DNA from: Candidatus Heimdallarchaeota archaeon
Lineage (GTDB): Archaea > Asgardarchaeota > Heimdallarchaeia > Heimdallarchaeales > Kariarchaeaceae
Reading direction: 5' to 3'
Assembly: GCA_015523565.1 (NCBI GenBank)
Contig: WAKA01000148.1
Coordinates: forward strand, 1 to 26,054
Length of the DNA stretch: 26,054 nucleotides
A model generated the notes under the pieces. That model was not told the DNA's origin, did no database searches, and saw only the letters and a program-made list of their open reading frames with translations. Both the position numbers and the translations under genes were made by a program. Below, in pieces: positions 2,982-9,877 of this stretch (position 1 is its first letter; the number at the start of each line of letters is the position of its first letter).

Positions 2982-3434
2982 CTATTTGGTACGACCAATA
3001 CGGAATTTGAGGATGGATTGCCTTTTATATGTCTCAAGAATGTAGTCATGGCTTTCTGGAAGCTCACGCTTCTTCAACAGGGAGTTGCGAACCAATGGCT
3101 CTGAAACATACACCACCATTCGATCAAGATATGGAAGTTGGGAAAAAAGATCAGGAACCAAGTCTTCATTGGGTACAACCAGTTTCATGCCAATAATATG
3201 CCCAAATGAATCACCAGGTTGCAGAACAGTCAATGAGATGACATCATCAATGACAGAATACCGGTCAACACCCACGTGATCAACCAATGCGGGTTTCGAA
3301 AGATAGAGATTAACGCCAGACAATCTTAGCTCGATTGCCAATTCCTCAAGCACATTCAGCTCAGATGGAGAAATCAATCGATCCAGGGAAACATTTGAAG
3401 CCCGGCGCAAACGTCTCAGACGTTTATAATACAT
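2982..3434 (-). CDS. hypothetical protein (150 aa, Arg-rich N-terminus)
   Basis: ATG-initiated ORF with protein-like composition, convergent with uppS (10-bp gap). No family recognised. Confidence 0.65.
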   Translation of the reverse strand: MYYKRLRRLRRASNVSLDRLISPSELNVLEELAIELRLSGVNLYLSKPALVDHVGVDRYSVIDDVISLTVLQPGDSFGHIIGMKLVVPNEDLVPDLFSQLPYLDRMVVYVSEPLVRNSLLKKRELPESHDYILETYKRQSILKFRIGRTK

Positions 3435-3479: not shown

Positions 3480-4388
3480 AAAGAACCTAGTGACAAGTTT
3501 CTTGATTTTCAAAAAATAAGCAAGATCATGGAAGGAACCAGCCCCACGCCAAACGAGCACCAAAGGTGGTGAAGAACATGGAAAAGAGGTACCGAGACAA
3601 TCTGATTTCCCAAGCAAAAGAAGCCTCCCAAACCTTGCCTTCGAAAAGGTCGTTTTCCTTAAGTGGAGGGATAAAACGGAAATGCCTGCTCTATATGATC
3701 TCCCCCCATCGAGAAGAAGACATTCAGATCACGGGAAAAATCCCATTGAATAAACCAGTGAAAGACAATTTATTCAGATCAGGATTGTATACCGATGAAG
3801 CCATTAAAGGACTAAAATCGATCCCGATCGAACAAATCATATGACTCCCCAAAAAGATACTATGAAGCCTTCCCTCTATGGCTTGAAGCAAGATTGAGAA
3901 GAATACTCCATACATTGACTCTCAATCAAAATCCCCTGATACATAATTTTGAAGCTTGGAAAAAATAATATTCAGCTCAGGAAAACTGACCGATGTAATT
4001 AGTACAAGAAGAATTTGGGAACTCGCCAAAAAATACCTCGCAATAGGTTCAAGATTACAGATGACCAAATTCGGCAAACAAATCATCTCCAAGCCATACA
4101 AACCGTTCAGATATCTGACAATGCCAACCCCCATTTTCCTTGATCACAAGATATTCCAAAATGGCAACTTCATCAAAATGCTCAAAAAAATATTCCCAAA
4201 TAAACCAATCCCCAAAAATCTTGAAAAAATACCCTCCAGAAAAAAATCTATCTTGATATCCTTGAAACCGCACATCAATCGCGCAACAAACCCTTCCCAA
4301 AAAAGACATAGATAATTTCTTCAACTCTGTGAAAAACGTGGCTGAATTCCTAAATAATATTGTTATCAAAATCACAAAAAGGATTTGA
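3480..4388 (+). pseudogene. Frameshifted paralogue of the C-terminal region of the 1149-aa ORF (left copy)
   Basis: Successive frames give YDSPKRYYEAFPLWLEARLRRILHTLTLNQNPLIHNFEAWKK (3840-3965), IWELAKKYL...PFRYLTMPTPIFLDHKIF and DNFFNSVKNVAEFLNNIVIKITKRI* (stop 4386-4388). These match YYQKIHYWIEAQLRRILNRLTLDKDLFEQNLDKWCK, ILEIAKRYL...PFRSGAYLTPIFLDPKLF and NHFFNIIQNFKTEIGKLKILFARI* of ORF 4935-8384. The 5' boundary is approximate. Confidence 0.8.
4067..4355 (+). repeat. Left arm of a ~290-bp imperfect inverted repeat (partner 8843-9127)
   Basis: The reverse complement of 4255-4355 is identical to 8843-8943 (101 bp). The outer part still aligns, with scattered substitutions and small indels. 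Confidence 0.93.
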
Positions 4389-4431
4389 TTCAAATATAGA
4401 TTTATAAATACCGTAGGAAACAGGAACTAGA

Positions 4432-4531
4432 TGATCCGGGAGGGATTCGAACCCACGATCACGTGCAATTTGGATGTTATCCAATTTGACCATCCCCAAG
4501 CACGCATGTTACCAAGCTACACTACCGGATC
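4432..4531 (-). tRNA. tRNA-Pro(GGG) with a 26-nt intron at position 37/38 (intron 4468-4493)
   Basis: Minus strand: acceptor GATCCGG/CCGGATC+A, D-arm GTGT..GGTA..ACAT, anticodon stem CGTGC/GCACG, loop TT-GGG-G^T, variable TGATC, T-arm GTGGG-TTCGAAT-CCCTC (one mismatch). Exon TTGG pairs with intron CCAA next to a 3-nt 3' bulge. No encoded CCA. Confidence 0.9.
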
Positions 4532-4541
4532 TACTATTTGT

Positions 4542-4557
4542 TGTGGAATTTTCCACA
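4542..4557. promoter_or_regulatory. Palindrome TGTGGAA-TT-TTCCACA just upstream of tRNA-Pro; candidate protein-binding site
   Basis: Perfect 7-bp inverted repeat with a 2-bp spacer, 11-26 bp upstream of the tRNA 5' end. Confidence 0.35.
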
Positions 4558-4883
4558 TTTGATAATTAGATAATTTTCTTTTAATGTTTTTTCATGGTTA
4601 CGTGTTAGATTTTTTGATTCTTTTTAATTCTTTATTTCAGTGGGTTTCTGTTAAAATATTGATGGATTGTTTTGGTTTTCTTTTTTTCCTTTATGAATTT
4701 TTTTGGATACTTTGGATGTTTGGATTGTTAATTGAATTTTAGATAACGTTTTTGTCAGAGTTAGAGCAGCAACAGATGGTTTTATGGGGTTTCCGTCATG
4801 TGATTTTCGATAATTCATATTTTCTTGTTTTCTATCATCAGATTGAGGATCACATTTGGCATTGTTAAATTTTCATCAAAGGG

Positions 4884-4931
4884 TTATGAGGAGAGAGATG
4901 GATTGATTTATCGGGAGAGAGATGGATTGAT
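4884..4931. repeat. Tandem duplication, 2 x 24 bp (TTATgaGGAGAGAGATGGATTGAT / TTATcgGGAGAGAGATGGATTGAT)
   Basis: 22 of 24 positions identical; lies 3 bp beyond the stop codon of the 1149-aa ORF. Confidence 0.85.
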
Positions 4932-4934
4932 AAT

Positions 4935-7900
4935 TCATATCCTTGCAAACAGGATTTTGAGTTTTCCGATTTCAGTTTTGAAATTTTGGATAATATTGAA
5001 GAAATGGTTGTTTTTGTGTGGCAAATTCATTTTAAGAATTGCATTGATGTCGGCTTCAAATGTTTTTCTGTAATCAAGGACAGGTTCAGGTTTATTATCA
5101 ACAATTATATTTATATCGAATCGTTGTATGATTTTCCGATACTGTTTTTTGTTTTCTGCAAACAGTTTTGGATCAAGGAAAATTGGGGTCAGGTAAGCCC
5201 CAGATCGGAATGGTCTGTCACCGAGCGTTCTTTTTATTAGGACCTTTTCTGCATTTTCGTCATAAGCCAAAGTGTGACCTGGGACAAGATATCGTTTAGC
5301 AATTTCGAGGATATGTTTTTTACCAAAAATGGTTTCGAAAGTCACATCAGTATTTCCTAGTTTTAGTTTGCACCATTTATCCAAATTCTGTTCGAACAGG
5401 TCTTTATCCAACGTCAATCGGTTCAAAATTCTGCGGAGCTGTGCTTCGATCCAATAATGGATTTTTTGGTAATAATGTTCTTTATTTTTAAATATCAAGA
5501 GATTTTCCCGTCCCGTTTTTGTTCCAAGATGTTTTGTTCCTAAAAATTCAGGGTCTATAGTGTCTGGATTTTGTGGAAAATGTCCAGGGAGCATTCTTAG
5601 GTCGAGAATTGTAAACACATTTCCTACAGGTTCGTTATTTGTTTTTGGATCAAACCATACGAAAACATTTTTCAAGTGGAGACAATTCATTTTAAATTTA
5701 ATCTTTACCAAGTTATCGGTAATTCCAGAGGCTACTTGTTTAAGTTCTTCAATCATAGACAATTCGAAAGGTTTTCCATGTTTTTTAGTGAAATCCATGA
5801 TTGTTTCTTGGTGGAAATAATTCATGAGTTCGTTGAAATATGTTGCAAGAAAGCTTATTAGTCTGCCATTTTTCATCAAATGTTTAAGAAAACTTTCAGC
5901 CCGTTCGATGTTAAGTTTTTTGTTCACCATCAGTGAATAATCATTCAATGTTCCTGTGGGGGGTCTGAAATGCAAATAGGTAAGTTTTTGTTTTTCATGG
6001 AAAGCTTCCACTATTTCAATCAACGGGACGGGGGGTTCTACAGCAGAGTATATTTCGGCGGTCAATCCTCCCAAAGGGCTGGGCAAATGACTATTGGAAA
6101 ATGATCGATGTCCAATTGGCAATTTTCCAAACCATAGCAAGACAATATCGGTTTCCTCTTCAGCGATAGCTTTTTTGTTAATTCTCCATCCTTTCAAGTA
6201 ATTGGATATTTTCTCTTCAGGAATCAGGAATTTAAGAAGGGATGATGGAGATTGTATGTATTTGACAGGGGCGTGGTGGTTTTCATAATGTATTCCAGCG
6301 GTCACACGAGTTGTGGTGACATAATTGTCGACTTCCACGTAGACCATGGTTTCTCCGTTTTGATTTGGTTTTGTTAAAATTATTGGATTTTTACTTTTTG
6401 TGTTGACCCTTTCGATTATTTTCATAAACAGATGTGGATCAATACCTCTCGTATTCCACTTCAGACCAAATTCAGAAACATCAAAAGAGCGATAATGATT
6501 GAAGGTTATTGGAAAATCCCCTCTCAATTTACCCAACAGATTTTCAACTTCCGAAGCAGTGGTTCCTGCATATGAGAGAATGTTTACTTCAGGCATCCAT
6601 CTGCCCAAGATGAAATTCGATTGGTGTCCTTGGTTCACAGTTGAAAAGACCAGATTGTACACTTGCTCCTGAAATCTTCTGAATTGATCCAGATCGTCTG
6701 TTTGAAGAGGAGCTCTTGAAAAAAGAGAAATGTCGTCAATTTCAATGGAAAACATGTCGAGATCATCGAAGTACCTGACAATGCCGTTCCGATCGATGAA
6801 TTTTGTGATACCAAAGCGATGAACTATTCCTTTTGGAGTATTGATTGTTTGTGGTGCAAAGAAGGTGTCTTTGTCAATGATACCGATATAAAGGGTCCCG
6901 TTTGCATCCCTCAAAGGGATTTGTATAATGTCCGATAGGTTTGATATGATGTCCCCGACAGAGGTGGAAACTAAGTTGTCTTGTTTTTTTATGATTAAGA
7001 GGTTATTTTCCATTGCATCTTTTATAGTATTGATTGAGCTAAACCCGATGCCAAGGTCTTTTGGTTCAGGCCACCTCCCACTTCTCATGAATTCAATCAT
7101 CTGATGTTGTGCAATGGAATTCTCCATCTTCTGGACGTATCCTTTGATTATGCAGTGAACAATCTGTTTCTGGTTCTCTGAAAGTTGTGAGAATTTCAGC
7201 TCACCGAAGCTCCTTTTTGCGATTGCCAACTTGAATTCATTTGTTGCAAGAGAAACTGCATTGGAAGAGCGTAACCCTTCTGAATCGACATAAAACAATT
7301 GGTCAATTCCCAGTGCACAGGTCAATTTTATCCAATCCCGTTTCAAGCGGTCGATTCGATCGAATCCGACACCACCAATAAACAAGCGTTTATCCTCTAT
7401 TGACCTAATCAAAGCAGGGTAGTCTTCAATCTTTCCAAGCACTAGTTTGGTATTTTCATTTCCTTTCAGTGTAATCCTGTTTGCATCGGTTATGAATGTT
7501 CTTCGATCCAAATTATCTGAAAGGTTTATTTTATACTCTTCAATGGTGTTCATAAAAGTCTTATCCTGTATTTGCTCAATCAGGAAGTTGGTGGTTCTTG
7601 TCAGGTCATCGGTTCCTTCAATTGGAGTGCTTGGGATAATCAATGTCAGCCTGTCTGTACCAGATGACACCCCATTTGCATCTAGGGTATGGCGTTTGAT
7701 GTGATCAATTGCATTTTTCAGGGCTTCATCAACGAGATCGACTGAAGTGCATGAAACAGGGATGTTCCTTTCCTTTATCTTATTGATGACTTGCTTTTTC
7801 TTTGCATCCGAGAGTTTGAACACTGTACCATTCAACACATTGTCTTCATTGGTGGAGCTGTTGAGGATCAGGCTTGCAGGGAAGATATCATTGTCCAACA

Positions 7901-8384
7901 GCCTGTTTACGAGGAAATAATAACTCAATTCTTTTTCAAGCATGTGAAGAATGAATTTTTCAGCCCTTTCGCCTTGATTGAAGAAAATTTCGGATCCTTT
8001 GATGAAGTTGGCGTTCGGATCCTTGATTACGTCAGTAATGGAATTGTATTTTGAGATCTCCCCAACATTCTTATTTGACTTGATAAACTCATAGTATTCG
8101 CCAAGAAGGTTTTTGTCCTTTGTTTCAAAATAGGTTTGCACCTTTTTGTCCTTTATGAACTGCGACTTTGTCTTGGTATGGTGGAAATAGTACATGAGAT
8201 TGACCTTTCGCAAGAAGATCTCGTTCAGTGAGATTTCCTTGATGGAATTAAGGTAATTCATGTCATAAAGCTTGGTCAGGTTGTTCTTCAACTCTTCATT
8301 CATTGGGATAGGTTCTGAAAGTTTGTGGGAAGCACAGCTCATGCATGAAAAGTGGAAGACCGGATACTGGTTACTGTCCGTCAA
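4935..8384 (-). CDS. Large hypothetical protein (1149 aa) of an unrecognised family; probably 5'-truncated
   Basis: 3.45-kb uninterrupted ORF with a TTG start and a CxxC near the N-terminus (SCMSC). The frame stays open a further 15 codons up to TAG at 8430-8432. Paralogous fragments lie on both sides. Confidence 0.85.
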   Translation of the reverse strand: MTDSNQYPVFHFSCMSCASHKLSEPIPMNEELKNNLTKLYDMNYLNSIKEISLNEIFLRKVNLMYYFHHTKTKSQFIKDKKVQTYFETKDKNLLGEYYEFIKSNKNVGEISKYNSITDVIKDPNANFIKGSEIFFNQGERAEKFILHMLEKELSYYFLVNRLLDNDIFPASLILNSSTNEDNVLNGTVFKLSDAKKKQVINKIKERNIPVSCTSVDLVDEALKNAIDHIKRHTLDANGVSSGTDRLTLIIPSTPIEGTDDLTRTTNFLIEQIQDKTFMNTIEEYKINLSDNLDRRTFITDANRITLKGNENTKLVLGKIEDYPALIRSIEDKRLFIGGVGFDRIDRLKRDWIKLTCALGIDQLFYVDSEGLRSSNAVSLATNEFKLAIAKRSFGELKFSQLSENQKQIVHCIIKGYVQKMENSIAQHQMIEFMRSGRWPEPKDLGIGFSSINTIKDAMENNLLIIKKQDNLVSTSVGDIISNLSDIIQIPLRDANGTLYIGIIDKDTFFAPQTINTPKGIVHRFGITKFIDRNGIVRYFDDLDMFSIEIDDISLFSRAPLQTDDLDQFRRFQEQVYNLVFSTVNQGHQSNFILGRWMPEVNILSYAGTTASEVENLLGKLRGDFPITFNHYRSFDVSEFGLKWNTRGIDPHLFMKIIERVNTKSKNPIILTKPNQNGETMVYVEVDNYVTTTRVTAGIHYENHHAPVKYIQSPSSLLKFLIPEEKISNYLKGWRINKKAIAEEETDIVLLWFGKLPIGHRSFSNSHLPSPLGGLTAEIYSAVEPPVPLIEIVEAFHEKQKLTYLHFRPPTGTLNDYSLMVNKKLNIERAESFLKHLMKNGRLISFLATYFNELMNYFHQETIMDFTKKHGKPFELSMIEELKQVASGITDNLVKIKFKMNCLHLKNVFVWFDPKTNNEPVGNVFTILDLRMLPGHFPQNPDTIDPEFLGTKHLGTKTGRENLLIFKNKEHYYQKIHYWIEAQLRRILNRLTLDKDLFEQNLDKWCKLKLGNTDVTFETIFGKKHILEIAKRYLVPGHTLAYDENAEKVLIKRTLGDRPFRSGAYLTPIFLDPKLFAENKKQYRKIIQRFDINIIVDNKPEPVLDYRKTFEADINAILKMNLPHKNNHFFNIIQNFKTEIGKLKILFARI

Positions 8385-8740
8385 ATTGAACTCACCAAGT
8401 GTAGGCCGGATGCTGAATGGCTTGCAAACCTATTGTTTTCAACAAATTGCACATCAACATACCTCTTCTCCTTGTTCTTGAAGAATACGCCGTATCCGTT
8501 AGGTTCTGCGGTAACTGTATGTTCCCTCCACGGATTTCTTGACACACAGGCGAACAAACTTGACGATTGTCTTGTTTTCAGTCGCTGAAACCTAGCGGGT
8601 TCAGACAGCTTGGCGAGACCATTTCGCCGTTAATCGGAACCTATCCTTTGTGACTATTTCCCATGATGGTTCTGAAGTGTCTATGATCCTTTCAGGTTTC
8701 ACAACTATAAGTCTTGGTAAACCGAAATGGAACGGATTCC
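8385..8740 (-). pseudogene. Possible decayed 5' extension of the 1149-aa gene
   Basis: Overlapping protein-like open stretches in alternating minus frames (RNPFHFGLPRLIVVKPERIIDTSEPSWEIVTK; EHTVTAEPNGYGVFFKNKEKRYVDVQFVENNRF) lead into KPFSIRPTLGEFNLTDSNQ, which is in frame with the large ORF. Confidence 0.4.
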
Positions 8741-8762
8741 TATCTCAACATAATTTGAATAC

Positions 8763-8824
8763 AAAAAACGACCCATTTGTTCATCCATTCAGGGATGGTG
8801 ACTAATTCACAAGTCCAAATGGGT
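8763..8824 (-). terminator. Branched stem-loop followed by an oligo-T tract; candidate terminator or structured RNA
   Basis: ACCCATTTG (8771-8779) pairs with CAAATGGGT (8816-8824) and encloses two small hairpins. On the minus strand it is followed by CGTTTTTT, and it sits at the 3' end of the right-hand paralogue. Confidence 0.45.
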
Positions 8825-9140
8825 TCTAGATTTTATGGAAACATTTAGGAATTCAGCCACGTTTTTCACAGAGTTGAAGAAATTATCTATGTCTTTTTTG
8901 GGAAGGGTTTGTTGCGCGATTGATGTGCGGTTTCAAGGATATCGAGATAGATTTTTTTCTGGAGGAGTATTTTTTCGGGGTTTTTGGGAATTGGGTAATT
9001 TGGGAAGATTTTTTTGAACATCTTGATGAAGTTTCCATTTTGGAATATTTGTTCATAGATAATTGGGGTTAGCATTGTAAGATACCTGAATGGTACTTGG
9101 ATTGGAGACGATTTGTTTGCCGAATTTTATCTTCAGGTTT
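8807..9140 (-). pseudogene. Second frameshifted fragment of the same C-terminal region (right copy)
   Basis: KFGKQIVSNP / VPFRYLTMLTPIIYEQIFQNGNFIKMFKKIFPNYPIPKNPEKILLQKKIYLDILETAHQSRNKPFPKK / DIDNFFNSVKNVAEFLN; close DNA match to 4067-4355. Confidence 0.75.
8843..9127 (-). repeat. Right arm of the ~290-bp inverted repeat (partner 4067-4355)
   Basis: 8843-8943 is the exact reverse complement of 4255-4355. The first mismatch is at 8944 versus 4254. Confidence 0.93.
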
Positions 9141-9376: not shown

Positions 9377-9877
9377 TTAGTCATTGCGATGCGCATTTTC
9401 CCATTTGTCGATGGGGGTGAACAGGATGCATGGCATTGGGGTATGTTTTTTGGTCAGGACGGCGGGGAGTGACATGACCTCACAGCCAGTATACCTTTTG
9501 TAGCTGGATATCAGCAGGGTAATTCCGACATAGGTTGTTGATCCCACAAAAAGTTCGAGGTTCTGCAAGAAATATCCCAAAGCCATGAAAGCACCGACAA
9601 TGCCATTTGCGAGGGTTGCCGCGGCATATTTGTTGGGCTGGATTTTTTTGGACTCAATCAGTTTGTGGAGGACAAGATATATGAGGGTGATGAGGATGAA
9701 AACGGAGAGGGAGAGGATGAGGGACATCAACAGGTTCGGTTTGTTGCTCACAATGAATACCCTGATGGCAAGTGCAAGGAAGAGAATGCCAAGGATGGTT
9801 CTTGTGGTCATTCCGATTGGTCCTGTCTTGGAGGGTTGGATGTTTTCTGTTTCACTTGTGTCTGTAAGTTCTGCCAT
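9377..9877 (-). CDS. Small multi-pass membrane protein with GCEV...C-x-x-F-x-PID motif (DUF6410-like, from recall)
   Basis: Four hydrophobic segments; N-terminal GPIGMTTRTILG; C-terminal YTGCEVMSLP...PCILFTPIDKWE. Confidence 0.75.
   Translation of the reverse strand: MAELTDTSETENIQPSKTGPIGMTTRTILGILFLALAIRVFIVSNKPNLLMSLILSLSVFILITLIYLVLHKLIESKKIQPNKYAAATLANGIVGAFMALGYFLQNLELFVGSTTYVGITLLISSYKRYTGCEVMSLPAVLTKKHTPMPCILFTPIDKWENAHRND

Follow-up and report, generated by a model that had tools for sequence, protein, structure and literature searches.

We analysed a window of 26,054 nucleotides (nt) from a Candidatus Heimdallarchaeota archaeon (contig C148 of genome G000, 3.57 Mb, from a hydrothermal vent metagenome), in which an intact open reading frame (ORF) for an 1149-residue protein and decayed remnants of its family surround a gene for transfer RNA (tRNA)-Pro(GGG). 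Its Roadblock and small-GTPase genes suggest a host of the Heimdall group. The family is undescribed and comprises predicted DNA-cutting enzymes of ~1,100–1,300 residues, with dozens of copies encoded beside many different tRNA genes in one small Asgard group. The tRNA gene (4432–4531, minus strand; Rfam 51 bits, E 2e-8) has a 26-nt intron at about 4468–4493; it was found by ARAGORN with introns allowed and overlooked without that setting. Upstream of it, the ORF occupies 4935–8384 on the minus strand, with alternative ATG starts at 8342 or 8303, and belongs to no Pfam family. The host genes that flank the element, encoding a 150-residue protein (2982–3434) and a 166-residue membrane protein (9377–9877), both on the minus strand, have orthologues at the same places in the congener G001 (68% and ~60% identical).

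Organization of the tRNA-Pro locus

The left remnant consists of two parts. The first (3533–3841, plus strand) covers about the first 90–100 codons of a family member and was recognized by its similarity to the copy beside tRNA-Pro in G001 (47% amino acid identity, E 2e-23; 73% nucleotide identity over 204 nt). Fused to it is a frameshifted C-terminal piece (3840–4388, plus strand), whose stop codon lies 43 nt from the 3' end of tRNA-Pro and which matches residues 965–1006 (38%) and 1019–1101 (31%) of the 1149-residue protein (tblastn, E 2e-7 genome-wide) as well as the s1 profile (E 1.5e-13 and 4e-10). An earlier sequence-only reading had recognized the tRNA, the large ORF and the left remnant, all of which our searches bear out, and had aligned this remnant with the end of the ORF down to the same terminal RI-stop. 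That terminal segment (4266–4388) does score above shuffled sequences, with p 0.009 for the ORF and p 0.001–0.003 for three homologues, though not for four other homologues. The remnant is not the purely C-terminal piece it was taken for: it has the N-terminal part, with about 900 codons missing in between, and is therefore an internally deleted or fused copy, beyond a C-terminal cassette.

The second decayed copy of that reading, on the right, comes down to 8843–9127 (minus strand). This stretch repeats a portion of the left C-terminal remnant at the DNA level, and by itself it resembles the family only marginally (hidden Markov model E 0.05). The two form an inverted repeat whose left arm of ~290 nt lies at 4067–4355; the arms are 90% identical over 290 nt, and the last 101 nt (4255–4355) are a perfect core. 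The repeat connects the two remnants with each other rather than a remnant with the 1149-residue ORF. The right remnant is separated from the start of the ORF by a 440-nt spacer without a family match (8400–8842), and a 24-nt tandem duplicate lies just 3' of the ORF stop (4884–4931). As had been stated before, no integrase, transposase or attachment-site (att) duplication is detectable in the region, and the window holds no duplicated tRNA 3' end. A second assembly shows the same arrangement and orientation, with zero differences in the ORF; sequence L183 is identical to the window and hence provides no independent evidence. There is no empty allele among conspecific assemblies, and the contigs compared, which do not extend over the left repeat arm, contain neither a junction for an inversion nor an empty site.

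A predicted nuclease with an unassigned C-terminal half

The 1149-residue protein is predicted, from its model and conserved residues, to be a PD-(D/E)xK nuclease with large insertions. A conserved D and a (D/E)-x-K motif on adjacent strands after a helix (model strands 222–227 and 257–267) are present in 26 of 26 copies. Alignment A3 shows no variation at D244, E283 and K285, which are predicted to be catalytic (codons at 7530–7655 on the minus strand), and the motif is retained in all subfamilies. The driving machinery had been supposed to act in trans or to have been lost, but the ORF itself has an intact nuclease motif. The dN/dS ratio (non-synonymous to synonymous substitution rates) of 0.14 against the closest paralogue indicates purifying selection. 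The model is confident over about 450 C-terminal residues, which could be assigned to no known fold. A second subfamily group has conserved E807, W901 and D904 there; these acidic residues are absent from the subfamily of the window.

Searches of Pfam, NCBIfam, PADLOC, PHROGs, PDB, BFVD and the ESM Atlas gave no match for the family. Nothing significant was obtained for the ORF and other members in the first four or among PDB sequences, and ESM Atlas features all scored below 0.9. Foldseek with whole models, the domains not being folded alone, gave no match at E ≤ 0.001 in PDB or BFVD and none in the Atlas, which is no proof of a new fold. The nearest fold is that of HamA, the Hachiman effector. 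HamA / DUF1837 and type IIS-like nucleases have been described (PMC12278908); in comparison, the family proteins are four to five times longer, have a core split by a ~300-residue insertion and are multi-copy at tRNAs. PF08878 gave no match, comparing profiles with those of three HamA-like proteins from Asgards gave a probability below 1%, and no ORF with both Walker A and DExH motifs, as expected of the Ski2-like helicase HamB, lies within 5 kb of 11 copies (some contigs being short). Cas12 chains rank high in the fold search, yet with E 0.14 or worse and a template modelling score of ~0.06, and the family alignment has no RuvC motif. DDE, HUH, tyrosine or serine recombinase, reverse transcriptase and polymerase signatures were not found in the family. 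We also rejected a GGDEF/Cas10-palm assignment (ESM Atlas rows at 0.77–0.78), as the invariant motif is E-x-K and not that of a palm, and dropped an IS200 HUH fold suggested by motifs, a reverse transcriptase "YFDD" motif that is not conserved, and a degenerate methyltransferase, the strands of which appear to complete the nuclease sheet.

Distribution of the family and its association with tRNA genes

Members are 1,000–1,340 residues long. G000 has five further intact paralogues at 29–58% identity, and the G001 remnant led to five more large ORFs in G000, joined to the first group by profile comparison (probability 97%, E 3e-11). Profile searches detected about 15 copies or remnants in G001, about 11 in G002 and one in G007, from a sister genus, none in G003 (93% complete) and none convincing among the ~395 remaining genomes searched from the phylum, with only two candidates per genome scored in the 400-genome runs. 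A weak match in G015 is Cas3, and those in G062 and G191 are weak as well; two single-contig genomes of the sister family gave no match. Among 1.84 billion representatives there were 12 matches, mostly the copies in G000 and G001, and a scan of metagenome contigs, which did not extend to viral contigs, gave none. The family makes up ~1% of the genomes that carry it and is present at between one quarter and one third of the tRNA loci there. The literature searched, which excluded subscription journals, contains no earlier description of it.

In G000, 9 of 11 large copies have a tRNA gene or tRNA half at most 600 nt away, compared with 24 of 1553 other ORFs (p 1e-14); the other two copies lie near contig ends or run off them. 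Nearly all copies found later, an independent test, adjoin a tRNA, including the weakest match (a 1113-residue ORF behind tRNA-Val in G007, E 1e-3), and about seven copies that show no tRNA sit at the end of a contig or close to it. At least 17 tRNA species are represented among 33 copies tabulated, 17 copies being at the 5' side and 16 at the 3' side of the tRNA. That copies point at the tRNA, as the three in the window seemed to, is not a rule, since 23 are directed toward it and 10 away. Remnants are mostly C-terminal pieces abutting the tRNA, and the neighbours are host genes that differ at each copy. The copies are accompanied by neither an integrase nor a helper gene, 500–650 nt of flank show no terminal repeats and no end motif in common, and neither of the two tyrosine recombinases in the genome shares a contig with a copy. 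Repeated insertion of one family at a tRNA locus, leaving decayed copies, thus applies genome-wide and not to the window alone.

Occupancy is patchy. The 1149-residue ORF is absent between the same flanks in G001; tRNA-Pro there is accompanied by a chimeric remnant (L015:8778-10981), which joins an N-terminus of the window's subfamily to the C-terminus of another. A close relative of that C-terminus is located at tRNA-Pro(CGG), hinting at an isotype preference. No copy was detected next to tRNA-Pro(GGG) in G003 or G008, nor on its 3' side in G002. Some copies are kept at one tRNA across species, and close paralogues occupy different tRNAs.

Several copies have unusual neighbours. An IS607-like element (a resolvase-like gene and a 399-residue gene, assigned by motifs) lies between a copy and tRNA-Met in G001 (L018:1022-2677). 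Upstream of one copy, the 3' half of tRNA-Ile is duplicated together with ~40 nt downstream (C218:10648-10710, L036; C127:217-291, L035), which looks like the att pair of another element. A CRISPR repeat lies 38 nt past the stop of another copy (C182:10668-10704, L024) and recurs in C137 (16) and C65 (3); the window has no CRISPR array.

Inversion of tRNA genes

Relative to G001, tRNA-Pro and the N-terminal remnant in the window are inverted with respect to both flanks; the orientation relative to the NYN gene in G002 is that of G001. Between G000 and G001, 8 of 17 comparable tRNA genes are flipped with respect to at least one flank, as are four of the five with both flanks mapped, in contrast to none of 33 protein genes in collinear triplets. 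The flipped tRNAs are at C61:28475, C91:7996, C139, C100, C157, C22, C155 and C148, and in places the flanks of different tRNA loci have been exchanged. In more distant, family-free pairs of genomes, flips number 2 of 25 and 5 of 25 (p 0.008 and 0.09); a first control pair (94% amino acid identity) was too close and a 56% pair was added. Flips are therefore found in the absence of the family too, seem more frequent in its presence, and affect several tRNAs beside which no copy is detectable; the link is suggestive only.

A possible route of spread and its alternatives

Our preferred explanation, which we hold to be somewhat more probable than its negation, is that the family is a single-gene selfish element, a site-directed PD-(D/E)xK endonuclease that spreads between tRNA loci without integrase or transposase. 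What we observe is the family itself, its position beside tRNAs, the patchy occupancy, the conserved motif, the purifying selection and the flips; DNA cleavage, recognition of tRNA genes, the route of repair and the sequence of events are what we infer. The extra domains would recognize features common to tRNA genes and the enzyme would cut beside them. Repair of the break by the host would then copy the gene, either out of a donor tRNA locus by virtue of the resemblance among tRNA genes, which would be ectopic homing, or, as ordinary homing, from the corresponding locus of a related cell. The tRNA-proximal end would be spared by copying and later decay, leaving C-terminal remnants against tRNAs, and breaks at tRNAs may also flip them and shuffle their flanks. 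Cutting by a nuclease and copying by host repair is the simplest account and would explain the absent ends and recombinase, the many tRNA species, the surviving tRNA-proximal ends and the local rearrangement. In the window, an old copy may have given rise to a duplicate across tRNA-Pro, followed by decay of the two; a different family member would then have entered on the upstream side of the tRNA, and an inversion of the segment through the repeat pair is probable. More tentatively, and with doubt prevailing, the family may be a new class of mobile element, in which one protein of ~1,150 residues recognizes tRNA genes as a class and, by cutting to either side of them, copies its own gene to new tRNA loci and flips or reshuffles tRNA genes; it would need no transposase, integrase or reverse transcriptase and would be an archaeal counterpart of the tRNA-targeted elements of eukaryotes.

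The large C-terminal half of unassigned fold, its residues E807, W901 and D904 in the second group and the insertions on both sides in both orientations could also belong to a new kind of tRNA-targeted, one-protein transposase, in which the nuclease domain cuts and the C-terminal half does the strand transfer or copying. We regard this as unlikely, as the flanks lack terminal repeats or a shared end motif, no known recombinase or polymerase signature is present and the C-terminal acidic residues are not common to the window's subfamily. Equally unlikely is a host defence nuclease guarding integration hotspots or sensing foreign DNA at tRNA loci and diversified by an arms race: the HamA-like fold, the purifying selection, the inheritance of several copies at the same tRNA across species and the CRISPR repeat beside one copy would suit it, but PADLOC gives no match, no helicase is found within 5 kb of any of the 11 copies, and single genes at 17 or more tRNA species and many wrecks would be left unexplained.

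That the genes are passive cargo of since-deleted integrative elements is quite improbable. tRNAs are common integration sites, and the copy in C218 lies behind a duplicated tRNA-Ile 3' half, but half of the copies are at the tRNA 5' side, neither of the genome's tyrosine recombinases is on a copy-bearing contig and no cargo genes are shared. The mostly C-terminal remnants resemble the 5'-truncated copies that would be left by a retro-element that encodes a restriction-like endonuclease and receives reverse transcriptase in trans, a reading to which we assign very little weight: the protein has no reverse transcriptase motif, no member scanned has an RVT match, RVT_1 is absent from G000, G002 and G007 with one match in G001, and no poly(A) tails or target duplications were seen. 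Least credible is the earlier idea that the expressed gene takes up silent C-terminal cassettes by swapping. The perfect 101-nt core does suggest recent conversion or crossover, but the repeat joins two remnants, so that inversion would not alter the large ORF, the remnants contain frameshifts and stops and are 31–38% identical to the ORF, and the second assembly has the identical ORF in the same orientation.

Returning to the single-gene endonuclease, the closest working likeness is a homing endonuclease of the free-standing kind, with its gene outside an intron or intein and patchy among relatives; such families have one cognate locus, in contrast to the range of tRNA species here. The nearest precedent is the phage nuclease SegB, which cuts tRNA-containing DNA and drives recombination there (PMC13096335). 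It is likewise encoded by a single gene outside introns and adjoining tRNA genes, but is small, of the GIY-YIG type and confined to a single locus of the phage, whereas the PD-(D/E)xK proteins have 1,100–1,300 residues and 10–15 chromosomal copies at many tRNA species. Aloposons of Ca. Heimdallarchaeum, with which the locus had been linked, consist of tandem genes for 3,000–6,000 residues and four upstream genes including a MinD/ParA ATPase (PMC8813620). They share the broad host group, the tRNA association and movement between tRNA sites, but the present family has a single ORF among host genes, without the tandem giant genes or the MinD/ParA block, so that the link is not supported. The copies of the family do adjoin tRNAs, which lie upstream in 10 of 33 cases. 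The nuclease TnsA of Tn7 is of the PD-(D/E)xK type, and eukaryotic retroelements such as Ty1/Ty3 and Dictyostelium TRE insert near many tRNA genes, both upstream and downstream; the family has neither reverse transcriptase nor integrase. tRNA-targeting Tn7-like elements repeatedly use different tRNA genes as landing sites (PMC11406308), but the family lacks TnsB, TnsC, TniQ/TnsD, ends and cargo and has no fixed side or orientation. The integrase and duplicated tRNA 3' end of tRNA-integrated islands or proviruses are both absent from the window, tRNA duplication being seen at C218 only.

If the single-gene reading is true, it would mean gene dispersal without any known recombinase, a new mobile element in the lineage nearest to eukaryotes and a candidate cause of tRNA-centred rearrangement. 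It would also supply a large nuclease in dozens of natural variants, likely with long, differing targets, open to direct assay.

tRNA introns and upstream sequence

Intron-bearing tRNAs are commoner beside a copy than elsewhere, with 5 of 8 against 5 of 30 in G000 (p 0.02) and 6 of 13 against 3 of 27 in G001 (p 0.04), although these genomes are related and the tests are not independent. The idea that archaeal tRNA introns are a response to parasites thereby becomes testable. The tRNA-Pro(GGG) intron itself varies: it measures 26 nt in G000, 13 nt in G003 and 28 nt in G008, whereas this tRNA has no intron in G001 and two in G002. A short block upstream of this tRNA (4575–4606, minus strand; core GTAACCA) is shared with G001 and is probably part of the tRNA promoter; we rejected it as an element end because it recurs in G001 beside tRNA-Glu, on the side that has no element. 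T-loop introns are present in tRNA-Trp (C50:7073-7215), tRNA-Asp (L114:3969-4092) and tRNA-Gly (L052:4520-4626), which ARAGORN and Rfam barely score or overlook.
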